Shown here: in pieces, positions 8,905 to 62,081 of the stretch | How positions within the stretch are numbered: the first letter of the stretch is position 1 | Layout: every line of letters starts with the position of its first letter | DNA from: an uncultured Thermoanaerobaculia bacterium | GTDB taxonomy: Bacteria > Acidobacteriota > Thermoanaerobaculia > Multivoradales > J023 | Reading direction: 5' to 3' | DNA length: 64,000 bases | Assembly (NCBI GenBank): GCA_964565225.1 | Contig: CAZMEL010000007.1 | Location: 439-64,438 of the forward strand | Program-made: the position numbers and the translations under genes | The notes under the pieces: generated by a model | Database searches by the model: none | The model's input: only the letters and a program-made list of their open reading frames with translations | What the model was told of the DNA's origin: nothing

Positions 8905-8934
8905 TCTCGAAGAGAGATCCGGAAGGAGAGCCCC

Positions 8935-9702
8935 GTGAGAATCGCCGCCCTTCAGAGCGACATCGTCTGGGAAGACCCACCCGCCAATTTCGCCCGCCTG
9001 CGCCCCTGGATTCGGGCCGCCGCGGCGGCAAAAGCCCGCATGCTCTTGCTGCCGGAGATGTACGCCTGTGGCTTCTCCATGGCCACCGAAAAGATCCGTG
9101 AGCCGGTCGACGGGCCGAGCACCCGGTTCCTCTGCGAGCAGGCGGCCGAGCACGGCTTGTGGATCGGCGGCTCCCTCCCCGAGACCCCAGCCGGCGCCGA
9201 ACGCCCCACCAACACGTTCTTGCTGGCCGGGCCGGAGGGAGAGACGGTCCGCTACCGTAAGATCCACCCTTTCACGTATGCCGGGGAAGATCGCCACTAC
9301 GAAGCCGGGACCGACTTCGTGACGGTGGAGATCGAAGGCCTCCGCTGCACGCTTTTCGTGTGCTACGACCTGCGCTTCGCCGACGAGTTCTGGGCCACGG
9401 CGCCAGGGACCGACGCCTACTTCGTGGTGGCCAACTGGCCCGAGACCCGCCGCCACCACTGGACTTCCCTGCTCACCGCACGGGCGATCGAGAACCAGGC
9501 CTATGTCGTGGGAGTAAACCGTGTGGGCCGGGGCGGTAAGCTCGACTACACCGGCGACAGCCGGATCCTCGATCCCATGGGCCGCACTCTCGCGGCCGGA
9601 GCCGAGCAAGAGACCCTCCTGCTCGCCGACCTCGATTCCGAGCTCGTCCGCGAGACTCGCGAGAGCCTGCCATTCCTACCCGACCGGCGAGGGTCCGGGT
9701 AG
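8935..9702 (+). CDS. Nitrilase / omega-amidase family carbon-nitrogen hydrolase
   Basis: E-K-C triad in LPEMY, YRKIHPF and VCYDLRF; ARAIENQAYV motif. Confidence 0.9.
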   Translation: MRIAALQSDIVWEDPPANFARLRPWIRAAAAAKARMLLLPEMYACGFSMATEKIREPVDGPSTRFLCEQAAEHGLWIGGSLPETPAGAERPTNTFLLAGPEGETVRYRKIHPFTYAGEDRHYEAGTDFVTVEIEGLRCTLFVCYDLRFADEFWATAPGTDAYFVVANWPETRRHHWTSLLTARAIENQAYVVGVNRVGRGGKLDYTGDSRILDPMGRTLAAGAEQETLLLADLDSELVRETRESLPFLPDRRGSG

Positions 9703-21975: not shown

Positions 21976-22956
21976 TCAACCCGCGACCACCGGCTCCGGC
22001 GTCGCTGCCGCGGAAACCACTCTTTCCCGGGTGTCGCTCTCCCACATGCCCGTGGAGCCATACCGCTCGCCGGTGTCGCTCAGGACCGTGACCGCCACCG
22101 CTGCCCGGGTCTCTTCGAGCACTCGCAGCGCGGCGTACACGTAGGCTCCGGAGGACGGACCGACGAAGAGGCCGCAGCGGGCCAGCTGGTGGCACACGGC
22201 CACGGAGTGGTCGATGGTGACGTCGATTCGCTGATCGATCAGGGAAGAATCGAGGATCTCCGGAACCAGATCTCCTGGGTGGCCCAGGGGTTTGAGCCCC
22301 TCGATTCCCGGAAAGATCTCGGGAATCACCGAGGCGATGTAGATCTTCGGATTCTCCTGCCGCAGGCGTCGACCCACCCCGGTGATGGTGCCCCCGGTGC
22401 CGACCCCGGCCACGAAGACGTCGGGCAGCTGGCCGGCGGCTTCCCGTACCTGCTCGGCGATCTCCTTGCCGGTGGTCTCGAAATGGGCCCGCCAGTTGTC
22501 TTCGTTGCTGTACTGGTTGCTGTACCAGTAGGTCTCGGGCTGCTCCTCCGCCATTCTCCGGGCGGTATGAACGGCGAAGTCGTATCCCTCGTTGGGGTCG
22601 GTCAACACCAGCTCGGCACCGTAGGCGCGTATTCTCTCCAATCGCTCGCGACTGGCATTGCCGGGTACCACCAGGGTAACGCCGACTCCGAGCGCTGCCC
22701 CGAACTGGGCGTAGGCGATGCCGGCGTTGCCCGAAGAGGAATCCAGCAGACGGCGTCCGTCGAGATCGCCGCGGGCCAGGGCCTGGGTGATCATGCGAGC
22801 GACCGGCCGATCCTTGATCGAGGCGCCGGGGTTACAGCTCTCGAGCTTCGCGAAGAGCCGGCTGCCCGGGGGCAGCGCGTCGTGGAGCGGAAGCTCGACG
22901 AGAGGAGTATTGCCTACGGATCGTAGAAGGTCTTCGGCTTGGATGGTTGGAGCCAT
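21976..22956 (-). CDS. cysM: PLP-dependent cysteine synthase (CysM type, probably sulfur-carrier dependent)
   Basis: KLESCNPGASIKDR (PLP lysine), SSGNAG, GVGTGGT; operonic with MoeZ and a ubiquitin-like carrier. Confidence 0.9.
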   Translation of the reverse strand: MAPTIQAEDLLRSVGNTPLVELPLHDALPPGSRLFAKLESCNPGASIKDRPVARMITQALARGDLDGRRLLDSSSGNAGIAYAQFGAALGVGVTLVVPGNASRERLERIRAYGAELVLTDPNEGYDFAVHTARRMAEEQPETYWYSNQYSNEDNWRAHFETTGKEIAEQVREAAGQLPDVFVAGVGTGGTITGVGRRLRQENPKIYIASVIPEIFPGIEGLKPLGHPGDLVPEILDSSLIDQRIDVTIDHSVAVCHQLARCGLFVGPSSGAYVYAALRVLEETRAAVAVTVLSDTGERYGSTGMWESDTRERVVSAAATPEPVVAG

Positions 22957-23010: not shown

Positions 23011-24180
23011 TCAGATCGCCAGCGCGCAGGACGCAGCGTAGTCCACGTATTCGATGGGCTTGGCGTCGTCGCCGCAGCACGGGCACTCGGGATTGCGATC
23101 GATCTTGAGCTCGGTGAACTTCTGCTCCAGAGCATCGTAGACCACGAGACGCCCGACCAGCGGATCGCCGAGACCTAGCAATACCTTCACCGTCTCCACC
23201 GCCTCCAGGGTTCCGATGACGCCGGGCAAGATTCCAAGGACGCCGGCCTCGGCACAGGAGGGAGCCAGCTCCGGCGGCGGCGGCTCGGGGAAGAGGCAGC
23301 GGTAGCAGGGCCCCTGGCGGCCTTCGTAGGCCGGCCAGAACACGCTCAGCTGTCCATCGAAACGAAAGATCGAGCCGTGCACATTGGCGATGCCGTGTTT
23401 GACGCAGGCATCATTCACCAGGTAGCGGGTCGAGAAGTTGTCCGAGCCGTCGACCACGACGTCGACCCCGGCGATCAGGCGGTCGATGTTGGAGCTGTCC
23501 AGCCGCTCCTGGTGCGTGAGGATCCGGAGATCCGGATTCATCCCCAGCAGCGTCGCTTTGGCTGATTCGACCTTGGGTTTGCCGACGTTTTCGTCGGTGT
23601 GCAGGATCTGCCGCTGGAGGTTGCTGCGGTCCACCACATCGTCGTCGATCAGGACCAGAGTTCCGACTCCCGCGGCGGCGAGATAGAAAGCCGCCGGGGA
23701 GCCGAGCCCGCCGGCACCGACCATCAGAACCTTGCTGTCGAGCAGCCGAGCCTGCCCCTCCTCTCCGACCTCGGGAATCAGGAGGTGGCGTCCGTACCGC
23801 TCGCGTTCCCGATCGTTCAGGACCCGGGGAACCTCCACCGGCAGGCCCTCGTTCTTCCAGCCGTTGAAACCTCCGTCCATCGAGCGGACGTCCCGGTAAC
23901 CGAGCTCCTGGAGATCTCTACCCGCGAAGAGGGAGCGCGAGCCTCCGGCACACATCACCACGACGGGGGTGTCGAGATCGGCGACGCTGTCTTCGATCTT
24001 CAGCTCCAGGAAACCGCGAACGATACGCTCGGCTCCCGCCGGGCTCCCTGCGGCCACCTCGTCGGGCTCCCGGATATCGATCAGGGCGGCACCCCGGCTC
24101 TGGAGCTCGAAGGCCTCCATCGGGGAGACCTCGGGAACCGTCTCCTTCAGCTGTTGCAGGCGGCGTTGACGAGCGATCAT
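23011..24180 (-). CDS. moeB: Rhodanese-ThiF/MoeB fusion (MoeZ-like sulfur-carrier adenylyltransferase/sulfurtransferase)
   Basis: N-terminal rhodanese with CAGGSRS; RYGRHL, GAGGLGSP, DRSNLQRQ, CYRC and CPCC zinc sites. Confidence 0.93.
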   Translation of the reverse strand: MIARQRRLQQLKETVPEVSPMEAFELQSRGAALIDIREPDEVAAGSPAGAERIVRGFLELKIEDSVADLDTPVVVMCAGGSRSLFAGRDLQELGYRDVRSMDGGFNGWKNEGLPVEVPRVLNDRERERYGRHLLIPEVGEEGQARLLDSKVLMVGAGGLGSPAAFYLAAAGVGTLVLIDDDVVDRSNLQRQILHTDENVGKPKVESAKATLLGMNPDLRILTHQERLDSSNIDRLIAGVDVVVDGSDNFSTRYLVNDACVKHGIANVHGSIFRFDGQLSVFWPAYEGRQGPCYRCLFPEPPPPELAPSCAEAGVLGILPGVIGTLEAVETVKVLLGLGDPLVGRLVVYDALEQKFTELKIDRNPECPCCGDDAKPIEYVDYAASCALAI

Positions 24181-24461
24181 CGCCCACCTCCAGCCACCGC
24201 CGGCACGATGTGCAGGGTCGCTCCATCGGTCACGGCGGATCCGAGGCCGTCCAGCGAGCGCACGTTCTTGTCGTCGAGGTAGAGATTAACGAAGGCTCTG
24301 GGCTGCCCCTCGGCATCGAGAATCCGATCGAGGAGACCAGGATGGGCGGAACCGAGAGCCTGGAGAGCCTCTCCAACGGTTTTGCCTTCTGAGGCGACTT
24401 CGGCCGCCCCTCCCACCATCGGTCGCAGCGGGGCAGGAATACGAACATTCACTTGGCTCAT
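24177..24461 (-). CDS. MoaD/ThiS/CysO-like ubiquitin-fold sulfur carrier with extended C-terminus AVAGG-GR
   Basis: VRIPAPLR, FVNLYLDDKNVRSLDGL, IVPAVAGGGR then TGA, confirmed in the DNA; ATGA overlap with moeB. Confidence 0.92.
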   Translation of the reverse strand: MSQVNVRIPAPLRPMVGGAAEVASEGKTVGEALQALGSAHPGLLDRILDAEGQPRAFVNLYLDDKNVRSLDGLGSAVTDGATLHIVPAVAGGGR

Positions 24462-24533
24462 GAGGACGAAGCTCCTTTGTTTCGTTCGGGTTCCTCGAGC
24501 ATTGGCTCGATTTTCATTTCAATGACTCTTCTC

Positions 24534-25016
24534 TCAATGCAATGACTCTTCGATCAGAGCGCCTCCGACCCGGCGCCAGGAGCGAAAACGGGCGCTTCCC
24601 AGGGCGGGTACGGAAACCCTCAGGTAGGAAATCTCCTCCGGCACGTCCTGCGCTCGTACGTCTTCGGCCTCAGTGCAGCAGGACACGGCTCGCCAGACGC
24701 CGATCACCTCGAGACCCGCTGGTCCCAGGCTGTCCCGCGCTGCCTGCACGGCTTCGGGGCCCGGGAGCTGGCGTCCCTCCGGGAGGTCGGATGGGTCGAG
24801 GTAGGTCACTTGCTCGATCAGGTTTCGCTCACCGTCCCGATGCCCGATCAAGAAACCCGTGGATTCGAAAGGATACGAGATCTCCGCGAGGCTGGCGAGC
24901 TGGCGAGCGAGATGGCTGGGCAGTATCGACTCGGCCGAAGACCGGCCCAGAGCCTTGGACAGCTGGTCGCTGGCCGAGGCCATGAGCGGCTGAGACTCAC
25001 TGGATGGTACGCTCAT
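24534..25016 (-). CDS. JAB/MPN (Mec-like) domain protein lacking the JAMM zinc ligands
   Basis: YPFESTGFLIG, GLEVIGVW, SY and RSW..EE match the Mec/JAB scaffold, but HSH..S..D is replaced by RAVSCC. Confidence 0.75.
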   Translation of the reverse strand: MSVPSSESQPLMASASDQLSKALGRSSAESILPSHLARQLASLAEISYPFESTGFLIGHRDGERNLIEQVTYLDPSDLPEGRQLPGPEAVQAARDSLGPAGLEVIGVWRAVSCCTEAEDVRAQDVPEEISYLRVSVPALGSARFRSWRRVGGALIEESLH

Positions 25017-25054
25017 TTCAATCCCCTCTTCCAGATCTGAGACACGCAGGAACG

Positions 25055-25083
25055 AAAAAGGCCGCCGGATCTACCCGGCGGCC
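25055..25083 (-). terminator. Intrinsic terminator (attenuator) in the cysteine operon leader
   Basis: Minus strand GGCCGCCGG-GTAGAT-CCGGCGGCC followed by TTTTT, 38 nt upstream of the first operon ATG. Confidence 0.85.
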
Positions 25084-25144
25084 CTGGAAACAACCGCCGG
25101 GCTCAGGGCCCGGCGGTCGGTATCGTCGTTCTTCGGTCAGCGAA

Positions 25145-25246
25145 TCAACGTCCACACCTCGGCCAGGCCATAGTGCTCGCACAAGGACAACACGCACAGA
25201 GGCAGGCCAGAAGAAAACACGTAGGTTTGAAGGTTCGGTGAAGCAT
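25145..25246 (-). CDS. Cys-rich leader peptide (33 aa, 7 Cys)
   Basis: MLHRTFKPTCFLLACLCACCPCASTMAWPRCGR; GGGGA RBS; lies between a sigma70 promoter and the attenuator hairpins. Confidence 0.8.
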   Translation of the reverse strand: MLHRTFKPTCFLLACLCACCPCASTMAWPRCGR

Positions 25247-25264: not shown

Positions 25265-25294
25265 GTTATACGCCGACCCCGGGGGACCTGTCAA
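25265..25294 (-). promoter_or_regulatory. Sigma70 promoter TTGACA-N18-TATAAC
   Basis: Near-consensus -35 (25294-25289) and -10 (25270-25265), 18 nt upstream of the leader ATG. Confidence 0.85.
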
Positions 25295-28775: not shown

Positions 28776-28879
28776 CGGCTTCCTCCTTCAAGTAGTCTAC
28801 CCGCACCTGCGATACCCTAGTGGGGTCGATCCACCGAACCAGCGGCTCCCGACTGCCATCGAGAGCCAGGCGAGGAATC

Positions 28880-30208
28880 ATGCTGCTCGAAGCCAAGGCA
28901 TCTTCCAGTCCTCCAACCGGCGAGTTCCGCCCATCGCTGATCTCCTGGAACCTCACCCAGCTGTGCAACCTCCGCTGCCCGCACTGCTACCTGTCGGCCG
29001 GCAAGAAGGCGGAGCGGGAGCTGAGCACCGAGGAGTGCCTGCGGCTGCTGCCGGAAATGCAGAGCCTCGGCACCGAGATGGTGATTCTCACCGGTGGCGA
29101 GCCGCTGCTGCGGAAGGACATCTACGAGCTGGCGAGTGCCGCTTCCGAGCTGGGCCTGTGGGTCGTGATGGGGACCAACGGAGTGCTGGTGAACGACGCC
29201 GTGGCCCGGAGGATGCTGGAGTGCGGCGTCAAGGGTGTGGGCATCAGCATCGATTCCATCGATCCCGAAAAACACAATCGGTTCCGCGGTGGTCCCAACG
29301 CCTGGGAGCACTCGGTGAGAGCCCTGGAGGTCTGCAAGGCCAATGGCCTCGAGGTTCTGGTGCAGACCACCGTCATGGACATGAACCGGCAAGAGATTCC
29401 GCAGCTCATCGACTTCGCGCGGCAGAAGGGGGCCTGGTCGTTCAACCTCTACTACCTCGTCCAGACAGGCCGCGGACAGCTCCTGAACGATCTGGACCCG
29501 GAGCAGACCGAGAGCTCCCTCCGCGATCTGGTGGACATCCAGGAACAGTACCGCCCTATGTTGGTGCGCTCGAAATGTGCGCCCCAGTTCAAACGCATCG
29601 CCTATCAACTGGGCCGCGGTGGCCTCGAGAGCGGCGGATGTATGGCGGGAACGCAGTATTGCCGGATCACGCCGGAAGGCAACGTCACCCCGTGCCCCTA
29701 CATGACGGTGGTCGCCGGCAACGTCCTGGAGCAGAGCTTTACGGAGATCTGGAACGAGTCTCCCGTGCTCACCGCCCTGCGCGATCCGTCGAGGCTCAAG
29801 GGCCGATGCGGCGCCTGCGAGTACAAGGAGCTCTGCGGAGGCTGCCGCTGCCGCGCCTACGCCGGCTTCGACGACTACCTGGCAGAAGATCCTGCCTGCC
29901 CGCACGAACCCACCGGAATTCCCATCGAGCAAGCCTCCGTGCTCTGGGACCCCGAGGCACGCGCGCGCCTGGAGCGCATTCCGATCGCCTTCATCCGCAA
30001 CAAAGTCGAGCAGGGCCTGGAGGCCTACGCCCGCAGCCAGGGTGTGGGCCGAATCACTCCTCAGATCATGAAAGAAGGCTTGCAGGGAGAAGGCCGCGGA
30101 TCCGTGTTCGCCAACATGCCCTCTTTCGTCAAGGGTATGCGCCCGGCGCCCGACCCCTCCTCCAGGGACGAGGACACGGGTTCCTCGACCGGCGACGAGC
30201 CCCGGTGA
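28880..30208 (+). CDS. Radical SAM/SPASM protein of the AhbD/NirJ family with C-terminal PCP_red-like domain
   Basis: CNLRCPHC, TGGEPL, SPASM GCMAG..C.ITPEGNVTPC and CGACEYKELCGGCRCRA; tail WDPEARARLERIP..FIR.KV. Confidence 0.8.
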   Translation: MLLEAKASSSPPTGEFRPSLISWNLTQLCNLRCPHCYLSAGKKAERELSTEECLRLLPEMQSLGTEMVILTGGEPLLRKDIYELASAASELGLWVVMGTNGVLVNDAVARRMLECGVKGVGISIDSIDPEKHNRFRGGPNAWEHSVRALEVCKANGLEVLVQTTVMDMNRQEIPQLIDFARQKGAWSFNLYYLVQTGRGQLLNDLDPEQTESSLRDLVDIQEQYRPMLVRSKCAPQFKRIAYQLGRGGLESGGCMAGTQYCRITPEGNVTPCPYMTVVAGNVLEQSFTEIWNESPVLTALRDPSRLKGRCGACEYKELCGGCRCRAYAGFDDYLAEDPACPHEPTGIPIEQASVLWDPEARARLERIPIAFIRNKVEQGLEAYARSQGVGRITPQIMKEGLQGEGRGSVFANMPSFVKGMRPAPDPSSRDEDTGSSTGDEPR

Positions 30209-31629: not shown

Positions 31630-31705
31630 CCCCGAGCGCCCGGCCATGCTAAATACCGTGCCTGACCTCAAAATTTGTAACTTCCCCTGAAAGGCCTAGC
31701 CGAAG

Positions 31706-33091
31706 ATGGCGCATGCCGTAGCAGCCGATATTGATCCCATCCATGGACGTCCGGCTCTCATCGAAGGGGAGCCGGACTTCCATCAGATTACCGAAGTCGT
31801 ATCGGCTCCCATGGAGTGGAAGCCACCGCTCGGCTGGTACATCTTCCTCGGCATTTCTCTCGCCTTCCTCGGCCTTCTCGGCGTCAGCATCGGCTGGCTG
31901 TTCTGGGAAGGTACGGGAATCTGGGGCAACAACATTCCGATCGCCTGGGCCTGGCCGATCGTCAACTTCGTGTTCTGGGTCGGTATCGGCCATGCGGGAA
32001 CCCTGATCTCCGCGGTCTTGTTCCTCTTCCGCATGCGCTGGCGAACCTCGATCAACCGGGCCGCCGAGGCGATGACCCTTTTCGCCGTGGCCTGTGCCCT
32101 GATCTTCCCGGGAATCCATATCGGCCGGCCCTGGTTGCCCTACTGGATGTTGCCGATTCCCAACCAGATGGACATGTGGCCCCAGTTCCGCAGCCCGCTG
32201 ATGTGGGACGTCTTCGCGGTCTCGATCTACGGCACGGTCTCGCTGCTCTTCTGGTACGTGGGGCTGATCCCCGATCTCGCCACCATGCGAGACCGCTCGA
32301 CCACCAAGATCCGGCGCATGGCCTATGGGATCTTCGCCCTCGGCTGGCGCGGCTCTTTCCGGCAGTGGCTCCACTACGAGAAGGCCTACCTGCTGCTGGC
32401 CGGCCTCGCCACGCCCCTGGTGCTCTCGGTGCACTCGGTGGTTTCCTTCGACTTTGCCACCTCGCAGCTCCCCGGCTGGCACACGACCATCTTCCCCCCC
32501 TACTTCGTGGCCGGCGCCATCTTCTCGGGCCTCGCCATGGTGATCACCCTGATGGTGATCTGCCGCGTGGTGTTCAAGCTCGAGCACATCATCAACCTCC
32601 TGCATTTCGACCGCATGGCGAAGCTGATCCTCTTCACCGGCTCGCTGGTGGGCTTCGCCTATAGCCTCGAGTTCTTCATCGCCTGGTACAGCGGAGTCGA
32701 GGTCGAGCTCTTCGCCTTCACCAATCGTGCCACCGGCCCCTACGCCTGGGCCTACTGGACGATGATCTTCTGCAACGTGGTCGTGCCGCAGATCTTCTGG
32801 AGCGCAAGGGCCCGAACGAGCATTCCGGTGCTCTTCGTCGCTTCGATCTTCATCAACATCGGCATGTGGTTCGAGCGATTCGTGATCGTCGTGACCTCGC
32901 TGCACGCCGATTTTCTTCCCGCGAACTGGGACTACTTCACGCCCACGTTCTGGGACGTTGCAACGTTCGCCGGAAGCTTCGGGCTCTTCTTCACCTTGTT
33001 CACCCTATTCGTTCGATTCCTGCCGATGGTCGCCATCGCCGAGGTGAAGAGCGTGCTGCCCCAGGCACACGTCCATCACCGGCCGGAATGA
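31706..33091 (+). CDS. actC: Alternative complex III subunit ActC (NrfD family)
   Basis: [67 protein letters not shown]. Confidence 0.92.
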
Positions 33092-33164
33092 CCGCGCAGC
33101 CGAGCACTTCTCGCGGCCCCGGGGCCGAGTGTGCTCGATCCGAAGATCCAGTCGAGGAGCGTAC

Positions 33165-33722
33165 ATGCAAGACGACACAGGGAAAGACACGGGCTCTGAT
33201 TACGGAATTCTGGCAGAGTTCCCCTCCCCCGAGGGCCTGATGCACGCCTGCGCCAAGGTGCGGGACGCCGGTTTCTCCGCCTGGGACGCACACACTCCGT
33301 TCCCGATCCATGGCCTCGACAAGGCCATGGGCCTCGAGCGCTCCATGGTTTCCGCGTTCGTCCTGGTCATGGGCCTGGCGGGCGCCGCCGCCGGGATGTT
33401 CCTGCAGTACTGGACCAGCGCCATCGACTATCCGCTGGTCATCAGCGGCAAGCCGTTCTTCAGCTGGCCCGCCTTCGTTCCCATCATGTTCGAATGTGGT
33501 GTTCTCGGAGGCGCCACCGGGGCCATTCTCGGCATGCTGGTAATGGGCCGCCTACCCCAGCACCACCATCCCCTGTTCGAATCCGAGGCCTTTGCCCGGG
33601 TAACCGATGATGCCTTCTTCATCTCGATCGAGGCCAAAGACCCCAAGTATCGACGGCAAGAGACCATGGGATTCCTCGAAGAGATCGGAGCCACCCACGT
33701 GGAGCTGGTCGCCGAGACCTGA
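33165..33722 (+). CDS. actD: Alternative complex III subunit ActD (DUF3341)
   Basis: DAHTPFPIHGLD, DYPLVISGKP, PAFVPIMFE motifs. Confidence 0.88.
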   Translation: MQDDTGKDTGSDYGILAEFPSPEGLMHACAKVRDAGFSAWDAHTPFPIHGLDKAMGLERSMVSAFVLVMGLAGAAAGMFLQYWTSAIDYPLVISGKPFFSWPAFVPIMFECGVLGGATGAILGMLVMGRLPQHHHPLFESEAFARVTDDAFFISIEAKDPKYRRQETMGFLEEIGATHVELVAET

Positions 33723-36687: not shown

Positions 36688-38319
36688 TCAGCCCTTCCTG
36701 CTCGCCTTGAAGAGGTTGCGATAGAGGGCGCGGTTCTCGACCGAATCGAAGCTCTCGAAATGAGCTTCGAACTTCCGCTTCTCCTCCATCTTGCCCTCGT
36801 CCAGATGATGGGTCAGGCGACCCATGGCGAGAAAGGTCTCCACCGGAGTCTTGCCCTCTTCGAAGAGCTCCCGGGCGAATTCCCCGAGTCGGAGCGACTG
36901 GACCTCATAGTCGTTGAGGTCGCCGAGGTTGTCCTGCAGGCTTTTCAGCGCCTTGATCGGCGCCGCGATCTCACCGCCGGGGAAAAAACCGCTGAAGAAC
37001 TCGAGAAGGTACCGTAGCTTCTTGCCGTCGATCCGGATCTCGTGCAGAACCTCCACCGGCGTGTCGGCATGTACGGTGCGGCCCTTCTTGACGATCCTCC
37101 GATAGATCTTCCAGATCCTCTCGCGGGCCACTTCCATGGCCGGGCGGCTCGCGTTGGGGCAGAGCTCGGAGCTACAAGCAGGTGGATGGGTCAGGAAGCG
37201 GTGCCAGGACTGGATCAGGGCTCGGTACCGTTCGGATCCCAGCACCTCCACCAGCCGCTTCTGCTCCAGCTTCTGGGTCGCTTCGAGGAAGCTCCTCAAG
37301 GGCTCGAGATCGCGAGCCGCGGCCTCCGGTAGAGCTGCTTGCAGGCGATCGAATTTGAGCAGGTAGACGTCGAGATCGCGGGTCGGTCCGGTACAACTTC
37401 CGAGCCAGGACAGCTCCCCGCGAAAGTGCTCGAGCTCCGCGGGAGGAAAGACCCCCTTGATCTGGGTCAATGCCGACCGGGTCCGGCGAACGGCCACTCG
37501 AAAATCGTGCAGGAACTCGGAGTCCAGATCGAGGCGAGTGCCGGTTTCGTTGGCCTGCATGGCCCGCAACAGGGAGAGGTGGATCGAACGGGCAGCCTCC
37601 GCGGCCGTCTGAGACGGTCGCAGGGGAATGCGCACCTTCGAGGAGTAGTCGCGCGGCTCTCGCCCGGCAAGGCTCAGGGCTTCCTCGAGCGGGCTCTTCT
37701 CGATCCGTTTCCAGCCGAGCTCCTTTTCGACATGGCTTCGCACCCGCTCGTACGCACTGCCGTAGCCGACCACGGAACGGACCACCAGCCGAGCGGAGAG
37801 GCGACCCAGAGGATGGCCACCGGCTCCACCGGTGGCCGCTTCGCCGGGAACCACCTCCGCCTGCTCGAACCGAGCCCGAACCACTGTCTTGCCATCGGGG
37901 TCGAGCACCCGCGCTCCGAGAACCTGGCTTCGCAGCCCGAGAATCGGCAGCAGGCGCCGCATCGACATCGGCTTCGCCAGCACCTCGCGCATCGCCTCGG
38001 GAAGCTCGTCGGAGAACCCCGGCAGGGAAGCTACCGACGCCCGGGTCGGGCGTTCGCTGTTCCCATGGGCCAGGAACAGCTCGAAGCCACCTTCGGCCCG
38101 GCGAGCTGCCGAGAGCGTGAGCTCGACCCGGTGCAGGCGCCAGTCGAACGTCTCGAGAAAGAAGGTCTCCTGCTGGCGCCGTTCCCCTTCCTGCAGCTCG
38201 AAGGGGCCTCTCAGAGCGTCGAGAGCGACAGAGGCTGCTCGTTCGAAATCGTCGAGCTCCACGGCTCCGCTCACCCGTGGCAGCTCGAACGTCGATTCCA
38301 TTTCTTCGATCAAGACCAA
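36688..38319 (-). CDS. CHAD-domain (polyphosphate-binding, phosin-like) protein
   Basis: LHDFRVAVRRTRS, GPTRDLDV, LHEIRIDGKKLRYLLE and LQDNLGDLND; N-terminal TFDWRL segment. Confidence 0.92.
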   Translation of the reverse strand: MVLIEEMESTFELPRVSGAVELDDFERAASVALDALRGPFELQEGERRQQETFFLETFDWRLHRVELTLSAARRAEGGFELFLAHGNSERPTRASVASLPGFSDELPEAMREVLAKPMSMRRLLPILGLRSQVLGARVLDPDGKTVVRARFEQAEVVPGEAATGGAGGHPLGRLSARLVVRSVVGYGSAYERVRSHVEKELGWKRIEKSPLEEALSLAGREPRDYSSKVRIPLRPSQTAAEAARSIHLSLLRAMQANETGTRLDLDSEFLHDFRVAVRRTRSALTQIKGVFPPAELEHFRGELSWLGSCTGPTRDLDVYLLKFDRLQAALPEAAARDLEPLRSFLEATQKLEQKRLVEVLGSERYRALIQSWHRFLTHPPACSSELCPNASRPAMEVARERIWKIYRRIVKKGRTVHADTPVEVLHEIRIDGKKLRYLLEFFSGFFPGGEIAAPIKALKSLQDNLGDLNDYEVQSLRLGEFARELFEEGKTPVETFLAMGRLTHHLDEGKMEEKRKFEAHFESFDSVENRALYRNLFKASRKG

Positions 38320-38358
38320 GACCGTATCTCCCGGACAGGAGCACCCCGCTCGGGATGC

Positions 38359-38856
38359 CTATTGTTTCTTGGCCTTCTTCTTGTCATCCTTCTTCTTCCC
38401 GCTCTTCTCTTTCTTGCCAGCCTTCTTCTTGCCAGCCTTCTTCTTGGCCACGTCCTTCTTCTTGCGGGCCGCCTTCTTCTTGTCGGCAGCTTTCTCCTTG
38501 CCGGTAGCTTTCTTCTTGCCGGCTGACTTGGTGCTCTTCGCCTTCTTCACTTTCTCGGGCTTCTTGCTCGCCTTTTTCTTCGAGGTGGATCGGGCCGCCT
38601 TTTCTGGCTTGGCCGCTGCCGGCGGCTCTGCTCTTCCCGGCTCGGGAGAGACCTCGGGCTTCGGCGCTGCGGTCTCTGCCTGGAGCTCCCGGGCAGCCTG
38701 CTGGATCGTTGCCGCTCGCGAAAGCCCGAATCCGGTGATCTGGGCCAGAGCTCCGACCCTGGCCTCGACAACGGCCGACAACGTTGCGAGTCCGGCAGCT
38801 GCCAGCTTTTCTGCCGTGATCTTCCCAATTCCACGGACTTTCATCAACTCGTGCAT
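38359..38856 (-). CDS. Helix-hairpin-helix protein with histone-H1-like Lys/Ala-rich tail
   Basis: VRGIGKITAEKL and ITGFGLSRA HhH motifs; the last ~75 aa are dominated by KKKA/KKK runs. Confidence 0.85.
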   Translation of the reverse strand: MHELMKVRGIGKITAEKLAAAGLATLSAVVEARVGALAQITGFGLSRAATIQQAARELQAETAAPKPEVSPEPGRAEPPAAAKPEKAARSTSKKKASKKPEKVKKAKSTKSAGKKKATGKEKAADKKKAARKKKDVAKKKAGKKKAGKKEKSGKKKDDKKKAKKQ

Positions 38857-39041
38857 GTTCGTTCTCCAACCATCGATTCTAGGATCTGATGAATGATCGC
38901 AGGCTCGTTCAGCGAGTAGCAGGAAGGGGCGAGGAAGGAGTCGAGGGGACTCGAATCCACCGAAACGAGACTCACTCGGACCCGAATTCGAGACCAGTGA
39001 GTGGTAAGCTCTCGACTAGCTTATACGATCAAAATCTCGAA

Positions 39042-40604
39042 ATGGAGCCATCAACTTCTCAGCCCCGACCGATGGGGACCATGTCCAGGCCCTCGGCAGC
39101 TCCATCGTCGAACCTGGCGGCCGTCGACCTGGGATCGAACAGCTTCCGTATGGTGATCGCTCGCCGGGTCAAGGACGAGCTGCGCCTGGTCGATCGGTTG
39201 CGCGAAGGCGTTCGCCTCGCAGAATGCCTCGACTCGAAGCAGAACCTGACCTGGGAGGGTATCGAGCGGGGCGTCCGCTGCCTGCGGAAGTTCGGCCAGA
39301 GGTTGCGGGATTTTCCCCGAGGCAACGTGCGGGCGGTGGGCACGAACACGTTGCGCAAGGCGAAGAACGGCGAAGACTTTCTCGCCGCCGCGGAAGAGGC
39401 CCTTGGATTTCCCATCGAGATCATCTCCGGCCAGGAAGAAGCACGGCTGATCTTTCTCGGTGTTTCTCACAGCCTGCCCGCGCTTCCCGGCCGTCGTCTC
39501 GTGGTCGACATCGGGGGCGGTAGCACCGAGTGCATCGTCGGCGAGGCCTTCGAGCCCCGCCGGGCGGAGAGCCTCTACATGGGCTGCGTGGGCTACACCC
39601 TGCGGTATTTCCCCAAGGGAAAGATCACTCCCAAACGGATGCAGAAAGCGGAGATCGCCGCCCGCCTCGAGATGCGACCGATCAAGGCCATGTTCCGCGA
39701 CCTGGGCTGGAGCCATGCGGTCGGCGCCTCGGGCACGATCCACGCTGTCGCCGAAATCCTCCAGGCCAACGGCTGGAGCGAGCGCGGGATCACGGCCGAT
39801 GGCCTGGCTCGTTTGCGGGCCGAGATCCTGCATCAAGGCCATGTCGACCTGCTGAGCCTCAAAGGGCTGCGTCGAGATCGGGCCAAGGTGCTGCCCGGTG
39901 GCGTCGCCGTTTTGTCCGGAGTCTTCGAAAGCCTCCGGGTCGAGAGCATGGCGGTCTCCAAGGGGGCGCTGCGCGAAGGTGTGCTCTACGATCTTCTGGG
40001 CCGGATCCGCCACGAAGACGTCCGCGACCGCACGATCCACCGCTTCGTGGAGCAATACAATGTCGACCTCGCCCAGGCGCAACGGGTCGAAGCCACGGCT
40101 CTACTTTGTTTCGAGCAGGTGGCCGAATCGTGGAAGCTCCAGGGCCCCAACGACAAGCTGCTCCTGAGCTGGGCCGCCCGGCTGCACGAGATCGGCCTCG
40201 CCATCGCACACGGCGCGTTCCACAAACACAGCGCCTATCTGATCGACTTTTCCGACATGCCGGGTTTCTCGCGCCAGGATCAACGAATCCTCTCGCTCCT
40301 GGTGCGCGGAGTCCGCCGAAAGTTTCCGCGGCAGCTCTTCCAGGCGCTCCCGACCTCCCAAGCTCGACGCACCGTTCGACTCTGCTGCCTGATCCGGCTC
40401 GCGGTGCTGCTCAACCGCAGTCGCACGGGACGACCGCTCCCTCCCTTCACACTCGAAGGCAAGGGCAAGAATCTTCGGCTCTCTCTTCCCGAGAACTGGT
40501 TGCGGGAGAATCCGCTGACCCGAGCCGATCTCGGGCAGGAGGCCTCGTATCTGAAGGCCGCGGGGATCAAGCTCCGGTTGCAGGACTCTTCGGAAGAATC
40601 TTGA
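39042..40604 (+). CDS. ppx: Exopolyphosphatase Ppx/GppA
   Basis: DLGSNSF, GTNTLR, ISGQEEARL, DIGGGSTE, GALREG and C-terminal HD-like domain. Start uncertain (39042/39072/39081). Confidence 0.94.
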   Translation: MEPSTSQPRPMGTMSRPSAAPSSNLAAVDLGSNSFRMVIARRVKDELRLVDRLREGVRLAECLDSKQNLTWEGIERGVRCLRKFGQRLRDFPRGNVRAVGTNTLRKAKNGEDFLAAAEEALGFPIEIISGQEEARLIFLGVSHSLPALPGRRLVVDIGGGSTECIVGEAFEPRRAESLYMGCVGYTLRYFPKGKITPKRMQKAEIAARLEMRPIKAMFRDLGWSHAVGASGTIHAVAEILQANGWSERGITADGLARLRAEILHQGHVDLLSLKGLRRDRAKVLPGGVAVLSGVFESLRVESMAVSKGALREGVLYDLLGRIRHEDVRDRTIHRFVEQYNVDLAQAQRVEATALLCFEQVAESWKLQGPNDKLLLSWAARLHEIGLAIAHGAFHKHSAYLIDFSDMPGFSRQDQRILSLLVRGVRRKFPRQLFQALPTSQARRTVRLCCLIRLAVLLNRSRTGRPLPPFTLEGKGKNLRLSLPENWLRENPLTRADLGQEASYLKAAGIKLRLQDSSEES

Positions 40605-40633
40605 GCCCACCCGTCGCGAAGCGCCGTCGTCGG

Positions 40634-41143
40634 TCAGCTGGTGGGCCAGAGCCTTTCGAGCATTCGCGGGCGCAGCATCCAGACCAGCTCGCCCGAGCCC
40701 TTCTCCAGCTCTTGCCACCGGGAGACGTCGAAGTCGATCCGAGCCATTGCCGCGGTGACCATGCGAATCGACGCTCGCCCGATCAGCTCCCCACCCAGGG
40801 CCGACCAGGTGGGCTCGTGCCCCGCCACCAGGAGACTTCGGAATCGGTCGTCACAACCCCGAATCTTCTCCAGCACCCCCACCACAGTCGCCTCGTAGAG
40901 CTCCGAGCTCGCCTCGATCTCGCAGCCCCAGCCTCCGGCCGCCTTCGCTTCTTCCACCGTGGTCCGGGCCCGGACGGCGGTGGAGGTCAAGATCTTCTCG
41001 GGCACCTCTCCGATCGCCGCCAGGAAACGGCCGACCACCACCGCAGATCGATGCCCGCGCCGGTTCAAGGGCCGTTCGTGATCGCGGCCGTACTCTACGT
41101 TCCAATCGGATTTCGCGTGGCGCAGCAAGATCAAGGTCTTCAT
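40634..41143 (-). CDS. sixA: SixA-like histidine phosphatase
   Basis: LLRHAKS, RPLNRRG, STAVRARTT, GHEPT. Confidence 0.9.
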   Translation of the reverse strand: MKTLILLRHAKSDWNVEYGRDHERPLNRRGHRSAVVVGRFLAAIGEVPEKILTSTAVRARTTVEEAKAAGGWGCEIEASSELYEATVVGVLEKIRGCDDRFRSLLVAGHEPTWSALGGELIGRASIRMVTAAMARIDFDVSRWQELEKGSGELVWMLRPRMLERLWPTS

Positions 41144-41240
41144 CGTTTCTTCTCGTGGGTCGGCTAGAGTCTTGTGACATGGTCGCCAATGGTAGGCTTT
41201 CAGATCCGAATCCACTCATTCAGAATCTCGAGTCAGAGGC

Positions 41241-43259
41241 ATGACCACGACGAAGTCCAAGTCACCACAAAGCAAAACGACGAAAAAGCTCGACGCGCCG
41301 GAGCATTTCATCAACCGGGAGCTGAGCTGGCTCGAGTTCAACCGCCGAGTTCTCGAAGAAGCCTTCGACGAATCGAACCCGCTGCTCGAGCGTGTGAAGT
41401 TCCTCTCGATCTTCTCCAGCAATCTCGACGAGTTCTTCATGATCCGAGTCTCCGGACTGCGCCGTCAGCTGGTTTCGGGAGTGGTCTCGTCTCCACCCGA
41501 CGGCTTGACCCCCGCCGAGCAGCTGAACGTCCTGCAGGAACGCCTGGAGCCCATGCTCGGCCAGGTCGCCCAGCTTTGGACCGAGGATCTCCAACCACGC
41601 CTGAACGGCGCCGGCATCCGCATTCTCAGCTATGACCAGCTGAAGAGCAAACAACGGAAGCTACTCCGCCGCCACTTCCAGAGAGAGATCTTCCCGGCCC
41701 TCACTCCCCTGGCCTTCGACCCCAGCCATCCGTTCCCCCACATCTCCAATCTCAGCATCAACCTGGCAGTGGTTGTCTCTCATACCGGCCAGGGTCCCAC
41801 TTTTGCCCGACTGAAGGTGCCACCCATCTTCCCTCGCCTGCTGCGAATTCCGGCCGAAGACAAGGCGGGAAGCTACGAGCGGCTGGGGCTGAGAGAAGTG
41901 GTGGCCAACAACTTCGTGTGGCTCGAGGAGGTGGTGGTCGCCAATCTCGACCTGCTCTTCCCCGAGATCGACATCGTCGACGCCTTTCCTTTCCGAGTCA
42001 CCCGCGACGCCGATTTCGAAATCGAGGAAGACGAGGCCGCCGACCTCCTGCTGGCGATGGAGGAAGTGGTGGAGCAACGTCACTTCGGCTTCGCGGTCCG
42101 CCTGGAGGTCGACAATCGGATCCCTGCTTCCATCCTCGACATGTTGGTGAGGAACCTGGAGCTCGCCCCGTACCAGGTCCACTCGACCGAGGGCCCGATC
42201 GGGCTCTCCGACGTGATGGAGCTCACCAAGCTCGACCGCCCGGAGCTCAAAGATCCTCCCTTCCAACCACACCAGGCTCTCGCGTCCGATGCCGAGATCT
42301 TCGCCGCCCTGCGCAAGAAAGACCTGCTCCTCTACCATCCCTACGACAGTTTTTCGACCGTCGTCGACTTCGTGCAGCAGGCGGCGCGCGATCCCGATGT
42401 CCTGACCATCAAACAGACCCTCTATCGGGTCGGCACCGACTCGCCCATCGTGCAGGCCCTGATGGAGGCCCGGGAAAACGGCAAGCAGGTGGCCGTGCTC
42501 GTAGAGCTCAAGGCCCGGTTCGACGAGAGGAACAACATCGTCTGGGCCAAGGCTCTCGAGCGTGCCGGGGTGCATGTGGTCTACGGGGTGCTCGGGCTCA
42601 AGACCTACCTCACCTGCGACCCGGAGATTGCTTCCGACGTCTCCGATCTCTTCAACTCTCTCACCGGGTACTCCCGCAAGGTGGTCTACAGCCACCTGCT
42701 GGTCGCCCCGGGCAGCATGCGGAAAGAGATCCTGCGGCGGATCGAGCGAGAAATCCAGAAACACTCGGAGAACGGCGGCGGGCACCTCGTGTTCAAGCTC
42801 AACTCCCTGGTCGACAAGGCCTGCATCCTCGCGCTCTATCGAGCCTCGATCGCTGGCGTCCGTGTCGACCTGCAGATTCGAGGAATCTGCTGCCTGAGGC
42901 CGAGTGTGCCGGGAATTTCCGAGAACATCCACGTGACCTCGATCGTCGGCAGGTTCCTCGAGCACTCGAGGATTCTCTACTTCCGCAACGGCGGGGACGA
43001 GGAGATCTTCATCGGCAGCGCAGACCTCATGCCGCGGAACCTCGGTGGGCGGGTGGAGCTACTGGTGCCGATCGTCGATCCGGAGATTCGCGACACCCTG
43101 CGCGATTCCATCCTCTTCGCCCACCTCCAGGACGAGCACTGCTCCCAGAAGCTCCTCGCCGACGGATCCTATGAGCCACTCCGACCGACCGAGGGTCGAG
43201 GACGGAACACACAGCAGGAGATGCTCGAGCTACGGGCGAGCCGCAGCACTCTGCATTGA
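41241..43259 (+). CDS. ppk1: Polyphosphate kinase 1 with an internal in-frame deletion spanning the catalytic His; possibly inactive
   Basis: NRELSWLEFN, NLDEFFMIRV, YHPYDSF, ELKARFDE, GRFLEHSRI and SADLMPRN are present, but GLKT is joined directly to YLTCDPE. Confidence 0.93.
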   Translation: MTTTKSKSPQSKTTKKLDAPEHFINRELSWLEFNRRVLEEAFDESNPLLERVKFLSIFSSNLDEFFMIRVSGLRRQLVSGVVSSPPDGLTPAEQLNVLQERLEPMLGQVAQLWTEDLQPRLNGAGIRILSYDQLKSKQRKLLRRHFQREIFPALTPLAFDPSHPFPHISNLSINLAVVVSHTGQGPTFARLKVPPIFPRLLRIPAEDKAGSYERLGLREVVANNFVWLEEVVVANLDLLFPEIDIVDAFPFRVTRDADFEIEEDEAADLLLAMEEVVEQRHFGFAVRLEVDNRIPASILDMLVRNLELAPYQVHSTEGPIGLSDVMELTKLDRPELKDPPFQPHQALASDAEIFAALRKKDLLLYHPYDSFSTVVDFVQQAARDPDVLTIKQTLYRVGTDSPIVQALMEARENGKQVAVLVELKARFDERNNIVWAKALERAGVHVVYGVLGLKTYLTCDPEIASDVSDLFNSLTGYSRKVVYSHLLVAPGSMRKEILRRIEREIQKHSENGGGHLVFKLNSLVDKACILALYRASIAGVRVDLQIRGICCLRPSVPGISENIHVTSIVGRFLEHSRILYFRNGGDEEIFIGSADLMPRNLGGRVELLVPIVDPEIRDTLRDSILFAHLQDEHCSQKLLADGSYEPLRPTEGRGRNTQQEMLELRASRSTLH

Positions 43260-43269
43260 CCCGGAAGAC

Positions 43270-43734
43270 TCACCAGGTCGAATAGGGGCGTCGCACCAGG
43301 TTGGAATTCAGGTAGCGGGGGTCGTCGGACACCTCGTCTCCGAGCCATGGCGGCCTCTCGAAGGCCTGTTCTTCGCTCGCCAGCTCGACCTCTGCCACGA
43401 CCAACCCGTCGTTCTCACCCCGGAACTCGTCGATCTCCCAGACGAAGCCTCCGAATTCCACCTCGTAGCGGGTCTTCTCGATCAACGGCCGCTCGCAGAG
43501 GCTGTCGAGCAGGCGGTTGGCATCGTCCATCGGAACCTCGTATTCGAATTCCAGGCGGGTGATTCCTTCGGCACGTCCCTTGATGGTCAGGAACGCGCGA
43601 TCTCCCTTCGTACGCACTCGCACATTCCGATCGGGATCGGTGGAGAGATAGCCCTGGCGAAACTCCGTACCGGATCCCAGACCCCTCCAGCTCTCGTCCG
43701 CGAGCAGAAACTTTCGTTCGATCTCTTTTCCCAC
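43270..43734 (-). CDS. CYTH-domain (triphosphate tunnel metalloenzyme) protein
   Basis: EIERKF (ExExK), RVR, TIKG, EFEYE, KTRY, WEIDEF, AEVEL. Confidence 0.93.
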   Translation of the reverse strand: MGKEIERKFLLADESWRGLGSGTEFRQGYLSTDPDRNVRVRTKGDRAFLTIKGRAEGITRLEFEYEVPMDDANRLLDSLCERPLIEKTRYEVEFGGFVWEIDEFRGENDGLVVAEVELASEEQAFERPPWLGDEVSDDPRYLNSNLVRRPYSTW

Positions 43735-43740
43735 GATTCC

Positions 43741-44523
43741 TCACTCGGGGTCGGGCGCACCGACCCGCACCTCGACGTCCCGCCAGAGAGACTCGAACGC
43801 GAGGGTCGGCTCGCGGCGCGGAGCAAAGGCTCCCAGGGGCATGCGATGGACTCCCATCTGCTCGACGAGACTCGAGTAGGGAATCCGGGTCGGCAGGAAC
43901 TCTTCCGCGAGGCGGAAGTCGAAACCCTCGAGGCTCGCCAGCTCTCCGATCGCTCGATGCATCTGCTTCCGCCGATCCACCATCGAGAGGAACGGCAGCA
44001 AACGCAGGCGGGAGATACCCCGGCGATCGAGGTGATGGTCGATCTGCTCCAGGGTCCGCAGCGAGAGTGGTGTGGGTATCGTGGGTACCAGCAGGGCGTC
44101 CGCGGCCTCGAAGACATTTTCCGAGACCACCGAGAGGCTCGGTGGGCAGTCGAGGATCACCCGCTCGTAGGCGGCCTCGAGCAAAGAGAGCCAGCGGCCG
44201 AGACGTTTCCTCGACTTCTTGGCCGCATCGAGCGCCAGATCGAGCTTGCGCAGGGAAAAATCCGCCGGCAGGACGTCGAGATCCTCGAAATCGGTGCCAC
44301 GAATCCGGCTCGCCAGCTCCGCCGATCGCGGCGAGGCCGCCAGAGCCTTGCGCCCTCCGGCGAGCTCCGGCTTGATCCGGAAGTAGTAGCTGGTCGCTCC
44401 CTGGGGATCGAGATCCCAGACCAGCGTCCGCAGCCCGTCCTGGGCGGCGAACCATCCCAGATTCACGGCGCTGGCCGTCTTTCCGACCCCACCCTTCAAG
44501 TTGAACAGTGCGTAGACTTTCAC
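43741..44523 (-). CDS. Orphan ParA/Soj-family ATPase
   Basis: Deviant Walker A KGGVGKT, DLDPQG, ILDCPP; no parB nearby. Confidence 0.92.
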   Translation of the reverse strand: MKVYALFNLKGGVGKTASAVNLGWFAAQDGLRTLVWDLDPQGATSYYFRIKPELAGGRKALAASPRSAELASRIRGTDFEDLDVLPADFSLRKLDLALDAAKKSRKRLGRWLSLLEAAYERVILDCPPSLSVVSENVFEAADALLVPTIPTPLSLRTLEQIDHHLDRRGISRLRLLPFLSMVDRRKQMHRAIGELASLEGFDFRLAEEFLPTRIPYSSLVEQMGVHRMPLGAFAPRREPTLAFESLWRDVEVRVGAPDPE

Positions 44524-45392
44524 GGCACGCCAAGCCTATCGCGATTCTCGGAGATTTCGCGTGTTCCGTCTCCAGTCGACGTTCGATTGAGGCTCCAGTC
44601 GTAGGTGTATTCGACCTCACCACGAAAAGTTTCGAGGCGATCGGCGAGCTCTTCGTCGGCAAATTCGGCCAGGTGCTCGAGCACCCCCGGCAGACCTTCG
44701 CCGAAATCGGACGCGTACCAGAGGTAGAGGCTCGAGAGCACGAGCTTCTCCCCGGCGAATCGTACGGCTCGTTCGTGGTTCACGAACGCCTCGGCTCCTC
44801 GATCGAGCAGATCCTCGAGATTCTCGGCCGTGAAAGGCTCCAGGGCCAGGTTCGGGCAGCCGTAGCTGGCGCAGTTGACCCCGTAGTGGATTCGAGGATC
44901 GTTCCAGATCGGCCGCAGAATCCGATTCTCGATGTCGTTCAGCGACAATCCCCGACCCTCGACCCGCAGCAGCTCCGCATTCCAGGGGCCCTCTCCGCCG
45001 TCGATGTGAATCTCGGTTATGGACTCCACGGGCCAGTGGTCGAGAACCACCCGCACCGTAGCCGCGTTGTAGAGATTCATCCAGTACGCCATCTGCTCGT
45101 CCCGAGAGAGGGCCGAGACTCGCGTTGCCTGGAGATCGGCCAGGTAGTCGTCGAGGTGGGCCCGGTCTTCGGAACCCACTCGTGAGTAGGCCACGACGTG
45201 GAGACCGTCCGCTCGAGCCGTCACGAACCGGTCGAGGAAATCGGCCCAGGGGCCGTGGTCGACCCGGGTCTGGCTCGCGGGATCGAAACGGGACCAGGCC
45301 CCGAACGCGCTCGTTGCACCCGCCGCCGAAACGAGGGCCAGCAACGAGACGAGAGCCAGCGCGGGGAAGAGAGCCAGAACCTTCGATCTCAT
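44520..45392 (-). CDS. Secreted DUF547 protein
   Basis: Signal peptide; AYWMNLYNAATV, SLNDIENRILR, DPRIHYGVNCASYGCP; GTGA overlap with parA. Confidence 0.88.
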   Translation of the reverse strand: MRSKVLALFPALALVSLLALVSAAGATSAFGAWSRFDPASQTRVDHGPWADFLDRFVTARADGLHVVAYSRVGSEDRAHLDDYLADLQATRVSALSRDEQMAYWMNLYNAATVRVVLDHWPVESITEIHIDGGEGPWNAELLRVEGRGLSLNDIENRILRPIWNDPRIHYGVNCASYGCPNLALEPFTAENLEDLLDRGAEAFVNHERAVRFAGEKLVLSSLYLWYASDFGEGLPGVLEHLAEFADEELADRLETFRGEVEYTYDWSLNRTSTGDGTREISENRDRLGVP

Positions 45393-45495
45393 GGGTCGAT
45401 CTCCTTGGCAAAAAGGGGCGCCTACGATTCGGAGGCGCATCGTGACTCGCCAGGCGTCCGTCGAATTGCACCCCGAGGAGTCTACGGCGGGTAAG

Positions 45496-62005: not shown

Positions 62006-62081
62006 GGCGCATTCGTCTAGGGGTCCAGGACGCCGGCCTCTCACGCCGGTAACACGGGTTCGAATCCCGTATGCGCTACCA
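62006..62081 (+). tRNA. tRNA-Glu (anticodon CTC)
   Basis: 76-nt cloverleaf: GGCGCAT/ATGCGCT acceptor, CCGGC-CTCTCAC-GCCGG anticodon arm, TTCGAAT T-loop, encoded CCA. Confidence 0.97.

Follow-up and report, generated by a model that had tools for sequence, protein, structure and literature searches.

When a sulfur carrier of the ThiS/MoaD type is masked, fused or product-loaded, a JAMM/MPN+ protease is considered its obligatory partner. A stretch of 64,000 nucleotides (nts) from an uncultured Thermoanaerobaculia bacterium (positions 439 to 64,438 of contig CAZMEL010000007.1; hereafter the window) carries an operon that poses a testable question: which enzyme trims and recycles the carrier CysO when the MPN protein encoded beside it has no zinc site? 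The operon is of a known type and has one novel feature, a zinc-less MPN protein standing in place of the JAMM peptidase. A sequence-only reading of this DNA had proposed that a catalytically dead or re-wired MPN protein is kept in the operon, perhaps as scaffold or regulator, and that another peptidase must mature and recycle the carrier. The proposal was supported by the computations described here, in which both the fold and the orthologs of the protein were checked, with the choice between a dead and a re-wired protein and the need for another peptidase still at the level of inference. The four structural genes are as follows.

24534..25016, minus strand: MPN-fold protein of 160 amino acids (aa) with the JAMM zinc site lost, from the fold model and alignments
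24177..24461, minus strand: CysO-like ThiS/MoaD sulfur carrier of 94 aa with the masked C-terminus AVAGG-GR*, from Pfam, NCBIfam and PDB matches
23011..24180, minus strand: E1-like adenylyltransferase/sulfurtransferase of 389 aa with an N-terminal rhodanese and a ThiF domain, from Pfam and NCBIfam matches
21976..22956, minus strand: CysM/CysK-family cysteine synthase of 326 aa, dependent on pyridoxal 5'-phosphate (PLP), from Pfam PALP and PDB matches

The carrier matched Pfam ThiS (E 7e-13) and NCBIfam SAMP1 (62 bits). The E1 matched Pfam ThiF (1e-81) and Rhodanese (6e-14) and reached 595 bits, over the cut-off, with NCBIfam PRK08762. The PLP enzyme matched Pfam PALP (1e-61); its best solved structures were those of CysM (O-acetylserine sulfhydrylase B, 2JC3 and 2BHS), and CysM of Mycobacterium tuberculosis (Mtb) was matched with an E-value of 5e-40 (3DWG_A). 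The stop codon of the carrier and the ATG of the E1 overlap as ATGA. The order MPN, carrier, rhodanese-E1, CysM is kept wherever the contig is long enough to tell, as in loci L001, L004, L006 and L007. A check of the open reading frames (ORFs) and their translations found the ORFs and the strings YPFE and AVAGGGR* given in the sequence-only reading to be exact and all on the minus strand. The MPN gene had also been called the first gene of the operon; it is the first structural gene, and a Cys-rich leader ORF of 33 codons comes before it. Within the 72 nts that separate the MPN gene from the carrier gene (24462-24533, minus strand), a small hairpin (UCGAGCCAAUGCUCGA) is accompanied by a weak promoter-like element, TTGAGA-16-GAAAAT; transcription of carrier, E1 and CysM may have an internal start here.

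The 160-aa protein was first placed by its fold, which the sequence-only reading had left to be confirmed. AlphaFold2 gave a mean predicted local distance difference test score (pLDDT) of 75.6 with 4 sequences, and of 88.7 with 50 sequences, the latter with a predicted template-modelling score (pTM) of 0.79. When both models were compared with the PDB by Foldseek, the top 50 matches were all MPN/JAMM proteins, with E-values of about 1e-7 and template-modelling scores (TM) of at most 0.73; they included BRCC36, DSY2949 (2KKS), PfJAMM1 with SAMP2, Rpn11 homologs, CSN5/6 and Cap3, and the highest TM, 0.73, was obtained with PfJAMM1 bound to SAMP2 (5LDA). A profile of four sequences, the protein plus three close orthologs of full length, retrieved 137 relatives from 1.84 billion representative proteins, and hhalign against 18 intact relatives returned a probability of 99.8% (E 7e-28). 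The protein also retains the C-terminal SYL..SV..ALG..RSWR core of the family. It is well supported that it derives from Mec+/JAMM, the peptidase usually found with CysO, a rhodanese-E1 and CysM in the synthesis of cysteine that depends on a protein thiocarboxylate. A search of PDB sequences had produced a weak match to 2KKS (E 0.13) in an alignment with a 3-residue gap; this alignment was replaced by the ungapped family and profile alignments used below. By sequence scores the protein is hardly recognised as a member of its family: Prok-JAB (PF14464) scored 19.6 bits, under the cut-off of 25, and spanned residues 34-108 only, the NCBIfam scan gave no match for it, and the orthologs P0002, P0003 and P0005 had no Pfam match. 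Measured against JAMM/MPN+ proteins, it thus has the fold, does not reach the family threshold, and of the E...HxH...S..D motif holds E51 alone.

The residues that were lost belong, in the whole window clade, to the active site, and the structural core is retained. YPFE corresponds to residues 48-51 and GVWRAVSCCTEAEDVRAQD to residues 106-124, and the codons that matter for the argument are these.

24864-24866, minus strand: codon of E51
24690-24692, minus strand: codon of R109
24678-24680, minus strand: codon of C113
24675-24677, minus strand: codon of C114

The family and profile alignments agree that the general-base Glu is retained as E51, that the first His ligand has become R109, the Ser of HSH A110 and the second His V111; the Pro of HSHP is S112 in the window and is still Pro in two orthologs. 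The profile alignment places E118 at the catalytic Ser and R121 at the Asp ligand. The stretch AEDVRAQD, which had been read as a conserved remnant of PS..D, did not hold up as such: within the core, no other part varies as much as the former S..D segment, which also carries an indel and was modelled with the lowest pLDDT. At positions +1 and +2 after the former HSHP, the pair C113-C114 is invariant in the window protein and its orthologs. The E-H[S/T]H-S-D motif is complete in 117 of the 134 aligned relatives. When the family was clustered at 50% identity, the full JAMM motif was missing in 15 of 134 clusters (about 11%). Prok-JAB relatives with broken motifs also occur in gene neighbourhoods that are unrelated to this operon, such as one beside YaeQ/DUF3549 (L011 10001-10417, encoding P0018; L009 6023-6595, encoding P0009; and P0013, P0078 and P0116), the motifs among them reading ERAL.., E changed to S, HSR, VAR and RSR.

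The gene is rare, intact and under purifying selection, a conclusion that is well supported. Only four close relatives were present in a database of 5.8 billion clusters, all from other metagenomes; three are full-length orthologs with 49-81% identity and the fourth is garbled at its N-terminus. When the family alignment was used to scan GTDB representative genomes and metagenome contigs of JGI, no relative was found. All four orthologs retain YPFES, WRA and CC, with the state R-A-V/E followed by CC, and the codons of R109, A110 and C113 differ synonymously among them. In pairwise comparisons, the ratio of non-synonymous to synonymous substitution rates (dN/dS, or omega) was 0.13-0.22 over the core of the protein (residues 29-160), compared to about 0.04 for the E1, about 0.07 for CysM and 0.1-0.2 for the carrier, which indicates a protein that is functional and much less constrained than the neighbouring enzymes. 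Residues 1-28 (24933-25016) are predicted to be disordered and are nearly neutral (omega 0.4-0.85), with start codon and ribosome-binding site conserved. Because intact orthologs occur in independent metagenomes and the core evolves under constraint, neither decay nor sequencing error accounts for the missing ligands. The expectation that orthologs sharing the His loss would be found under purifying selection was thus borne out, and the protein has the features of an MPN-minus pseudoenzyme, namely an MPN fold, lost ligands and selection to keep it.

The history of the loss can be followed in related operons. All lineages with an E1 that shares 80% identity or more with that of the window share the operon as well, and in all of them the motif departs from the canonical one, each time by a different lesion.

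L006: E-RSR-T-E
L007/L008: D-RSH-N-D
L014: E-HSH-L-T, with an in-frame insertion of 5 residues

The CC pair was not seen in L006, L007/L008 or L014. Prok-JAB scores step down from 87-89 bits in intact relatives through 54, 47 and 30 to the 19.6 bits or no match of the window group. A frameshift was considered as the origin of the odd S..D region of P0008 and was ruled out, the insertion being in frame. Such non-equivalent lesions look like the outcome of a catalytic constraint that was lost at the base of the clade and followed by drift. Further away, at 68% E1 identity, L015 carries a JAMM-plus gene directly upstream of rhodanese-E1; in L015 (10001-11816), as in L016 and L017, neither carrier nor CysM lies between the intact JAMM gene and the E1, and some of these contigs share metagenome projects with the eroded L007 locus. 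The best E1 match in GTDB was to an Acidobacteriota metagenome-assembled genome, at 67% identity. L018, from an Acidobacteriota metagenome-assembled genome and with an E1 67% identical to that of the window, has the nearest operon with an intact JAMM and shows the order Cys-rich leader ORF, JAMM-plus gene (WHTHP..PS..D), carrier-E1 fusion (AVAGG-ANARERR...) and CysM. As the nearest sisters are eroded and the next relatives intact, the canonical site was lost within one narrow and poorly sampled lineage.

The carrier bears on the question whether this operon still needs a hydrolase. The closest solved match was Mtb CysO (3DWG_C, E 2e-16), which ends exactly at the GG, and the window carrier extends two residues past this point. 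The masked di-glycine that had been read from the terminal AVAGGGR* is confirmed by this comparison and by the variation of the tail among orthologs. In carriers of the eroded clade, AVAGG is constant and is followed by GR, VGR, RR, VS, QK or QDR. A conserved GG in front of a tail of variable sequence and length marks a removable extension; the last codon of the tail is in part constrained by the start codon of the E1, with which it overlaps in the ATGA. Related operons with an intact JAMM have carrier tails or complete carrier-E1 fusions too, so that cleavage after the GG represents the ancestral requirement. The in-frame fusion of a CysO-like carrier to E1 next to an intact JAMM is at 5718-7185 of L018, and the same arrangement is present in many Gemmatimonadota and Acidobacteriota loci (e.g. 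L056, L057, L063 and L074); the GG-GR*/ATGA arrangement of the window looks like a split version of such a fusion.

At a little short of even confidence, we favour the reading that the protein is a zinc-free MPN-minus pseudoenzyme which has kept its binding of the CysO tail and leaves hydrolysis to an enzyme acting in trans. It would no longer be a zinc isopeptidase; the former active-site groove would dock the beta-grasp domain of CysO and its C-terminal tail, and the invariant C113-C114 and R109 would sit beside the GG terminus of the carrier. The MPN protein would hold CysO, whether masked by its tail, thiocarboxylated or loaded with Cys, or hand it over to E1 and CysM, and both the removal of the 2-residue tail and the release of Cys from CysO-Cys would be carried out by an enzyme encoded outside the window, in a division of labour like that of eukaryotic MPN-minus/MPN-plus pairs. 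An MPN-minus subunit is favoured because the losses are exactly the catalytic ones, because the former S..D helix is drifting, and because the lesions of the sister lineages are non-equivalent and show no common replacement chemistry.

Several points weigh against this pseudoenzyme. In the Mtb pathway, Mec+ is needed at each turnover to free Cys from CysO-Cys. Every carrier of the clade retains a tail after the GG, so that the logic of the operon wants a hydrolase. E51, R109, A110, C113 and C114 do not vary even in an ortholog with 49% identity, which is beyond what a passive scaffold strictly needs, and the position of C113/C114 by the old metal site is itself taken from the sequence register only. 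Neither a second MPN nor an obvious peptidase partner was found in the 64-kb window. A strict regular expression (H.H..S..D) run over six frames of the window gave only spurious matches, located in ORFs that are antisense or unrelated; a search of all window ORFs with an MPN profile made for this purpose (hmmsearch) returned the 24534..25016 gene only; a Pfam scan of about 45 further window ORFs revealed no dedicated peptidase near the operon; and no second MPN was present in the contigs of the orthologs. A partial Lon gene (1-2622) and a CN_hydrolase gene (8905-9702) are located elsewhere in the window.

These same invariant residues are the starting point of the strongest alternative, a metal-free, re-wired hydrolase or transthioesterase with C113 and/or C114 as nucleophile, E51 as base and R109 as oxyanion residue, which we consider possible, if on the unlikely side. 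The Gly-Cys C-terminus of CysO-Gly-Cys is prone to an N-to-S acyl shift. A thiol of the protein would capture the resulting CysO-Gly-Cys thioester and free cysteine would leave; hydrolysis of the CysO~S-enzyme intermediate, or its thiolysis with sulfide or persulfide, would in turn restore CysO or its thiocarboxylate. Such a route fits the invariance of CC, R109 and E51 over orthologs 49-81% identical with synonymous codon changes, the location of CC, which directly follows the former HSHP (+1/+2) and is predicted to lie where the old active site opens, an operon that is probably regulated by cysteine supply and has no other hydrolase, and the masking of all carriers. It is harder to reconcile with the sister lineages L006, L007 and L014, which share the operon and the masked carriers and do not have CC. 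Moreover, no His or other classical partner of a Cys protease is conserved, the loop that follows CC varies and its model is of low confidence, and the route accounts for the release of Cys but not for the removal of the thiol-less tails GR, RR and QK. Put in its full form, that the MPN fold was turned into a metal-free thiol enzyme (C113-C114, E51, R109) which resolves CysO-Gly-Cys or relays persulfide to the carrier, the proposal is more doubtful still; if true, a ubiquitin-like sulfur carrier would here be recycled by catalysis of a new kind, and the protein would be the first catalytic MPN domain working without metal.

A metallohydrolase with new ligands, in which C113 and/or C114 together with acidic residues bind the metal and E51 activates water, is improbable. 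Its model would be the cytidine deaminases, which have a related fold and a Cys-liganded catalytic zinc, and the retention of E51, the two invariant Cys beside the old site and the frequency of acidic residues at positions 116-124 are all compatible with it. Adjacent Cys residues, however, make a poor bidentate pair, no third ligand is conserved as positions 115-124 are variable and carry an indel, R109 brings a positive charge to the former metal position, and the sister lineages have no CC. The last possibility, that the ORF was miscalled, is a pseudogene in decay or arose from an error of sequencing or assembly, is effectively refuted: an omega above that of the neighbouring genes, a nearly neutral stretch of 28 N-terminal residues and a Pfam score under the gathering threshold would suit it, but the ORF is full-length in independent assemblies at 49-81% identity, its start, ribosome-binding site and synteny are conserved, the core is constrained and the fold is predicted with confidence.

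The DNA upstream of the MPN gene suggests how the operon may be controlled. This region is a secondary find, outside the scope of the sequence-only reading. The 300 nts upstream of the MPN gene are more conserved than the MPN gene itself and contain the following elements.

25265..25294, minus strand: sigma-70-like promoter, TTGACA, 18-nt spacer, TATAAC, identical in alignments of the window, L001 and L004
25145..25246, minus strand: Cys-rich leader ORF MLHRTFKPTCFLLACLCACCPCASTMAWPRCGR* of 33 codons with 7 Cys, from ORF reading
25150..25170, minus strand: segment 0, the proposed antiterminator, at the 3' end of the leader ORF and complementary to the 5' arm of terminator 1
25091..25118, minus strand: G+C-rich hairpin or terminator 1 (GACCGCCGGGCCC...GCCCGGCGGUUG)
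25048..25085, minus strand: terminator 2, a 12-bp G+C stem followed by UUUUUCGUU, 32 nts upstream of the MPN start codon

A promoter scanner made no call at 25265..25294, where the -10 hexamer ends in C. Cys-rich leader ORFs are also present in L001, L004, L007/L008, L014 and L018. Hairpin 1 has a full U-tract and was called a terminator in L007 and L014, and terminator 2 is conserved in the window, L001, L004, L005 and L002. In 6 loci, the energy of the duplex of segment 0 with the arm of terminator 1 ranges from -22 to -30 kcal/mol. It is thus about as stable as the terminator stem, and only 0-10 of 300 shuffles matched it. The pairing was kept in 88.6% of cells, with 4 pairs changed on both sides (five sequences), compared to 30-49% in slid controls. 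In the subclade of the window, a further duplex (-24 kcal/mol) can form between the 3' arm of hairpin 1 and the 5' arm of hairpin 2. When ribosome footprints were imposed as hard constraints in RNAfold, an equilibrium switch was not reproduced and both terminators stayed favoured; Rfam at gathering thresholds found nothing in the leader and one tRNA in the whole window.

The elements of a leader-peptide attenuator are nonetheless all present: a short ORF rich in Cys codons is followed by an intrinsic terminator, and the proposed antiterminator, which cannot form together with the terminator, lies over the end of the ORF. We infer a switch operated by ribosome stalling. A ribosome stalled at the upstream Cys cluster would leave segment 0 free to sequester the arm of terminator 1, which in the subclade of the window would also release the 3' arm of hairpin 1 for pairing with hairpin 2, and a ribosome reaching the leader stop codon would cover segment 0 and let the terminators form. 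Most likely, then, cysteine starvation switches the operon on through the leader. A Cys-codon leader points to cysteine as the product of the operon and implies that the MPN protein would be made exactly when cysteine is scarce; the CysO-like carrier, the CysM/CysK-family enzyme and the conserved putative attenuator all indicate this same product. The leader region is therefore a clear candidate for classical cysteine-codon transcription attenuation. Cys leaders of Actinobacteria (Seliverstov 2005, PMC1262725; Canestrari 2020, doi 10.1101/834739) share with it a short ORF rich in Cys codons placed before cysteine-metabolism genes. Attenuation of this kind has been looked for in Actinobacteria; terminators were not found in these leaders and control is translational, through sequestration of the ribosome-binding site (PMC1262725; doi 10.1101/834739), whereas the window and its relatives have one or two intrinsic terminators and an antiterminator over the ORF end, a classical trp/his-type design.

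Other features of the window lie at a distance from the operon. On the plus strand, a radical SAM/SPASM gene whose product has a PCP_red-like domain at its C-terminus (28820-30208) is followed by Alternative Complex III genes (NrfD-like ActC and ActD, 31700-33722). The interval 36688-46248 holds a polyphosphate cluster (CHAD, Ppx/GppA, histidine phosphatase, PPK1 and CYTH) and a TauE/SafE sulfite-exporter-family gene (45190-46248), and the tRNA is at 62006-62078.

How the operon compares with known systems can now be stated. The combination 'ThiS/MoaD + JAB + rhodanese-E1 + cysteine synthase' is the type 4c operon in Table 1 of Iyer, Burroughs and Aravind (2006, PMC1779556). Of this type, the window has the carrier with a C-terminal GG, the rhodanese-E1 and the CysM/CysK-family enzyme; a competent JAB peptidase is missing. 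The same four components, with a rhodanese E1 and a first gene homologous to JAB, are shared by type 4c and by the Mtb set Mec+ (Rv1334), CysO, CysM and MoeZ. The window differs from Mtb in three respects. Firstly, its JAB protein is without the H, H, S and D residues and its carrier has two more residues past the GG. Secondly, the rhodanese domain of its E1 is N-terminal, of the PRK08762 type, instead of C-terminal as in MoeZ. Thirdly, control would be exerted by a Cys-codon transcription attenuator. With QbsD/QbsE and HvJAMM1/SAMP it shares carrier residues after the GG and a carrier gene beside a gene for an MPN-fold protein; the proteases of these two systems have a full zinc site, in contrast to the window protein, which has lost the JAMM His and Asp ligands.

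To our knowledge, MPN-minus pseudoenzymes are known essentially from eukaryotic complexes, and a search of about 8.3 million papers found no description of a bacterial inactive JAB or MPN-minus protein in a sulfur-carrier operon. The eukaryotic proteins Rpn8, CSN6, Abraxas/KIAA0157 and eIF3f/h likewise have an MPN fold that is without zinc ligands and is kept by selection, and chains of KIAA0157, CSN6 and Rpn8 were among the Foldseek neighbours of the window protein. They are, however, obligate partners of MPN-plus subunits in large complexes, whereas the window protein is bacterial, consists of a single domain and is encoded in a metabolic operon. Either bacteria too use MPN-minus/MPN-plus partnerships or the MPN fold has gained a metal-free chemistry, and the eroded sisters, with their intermediate states of the motif, provide a natural series in which the transition from enzyme to pseudoenzyme can be studied.

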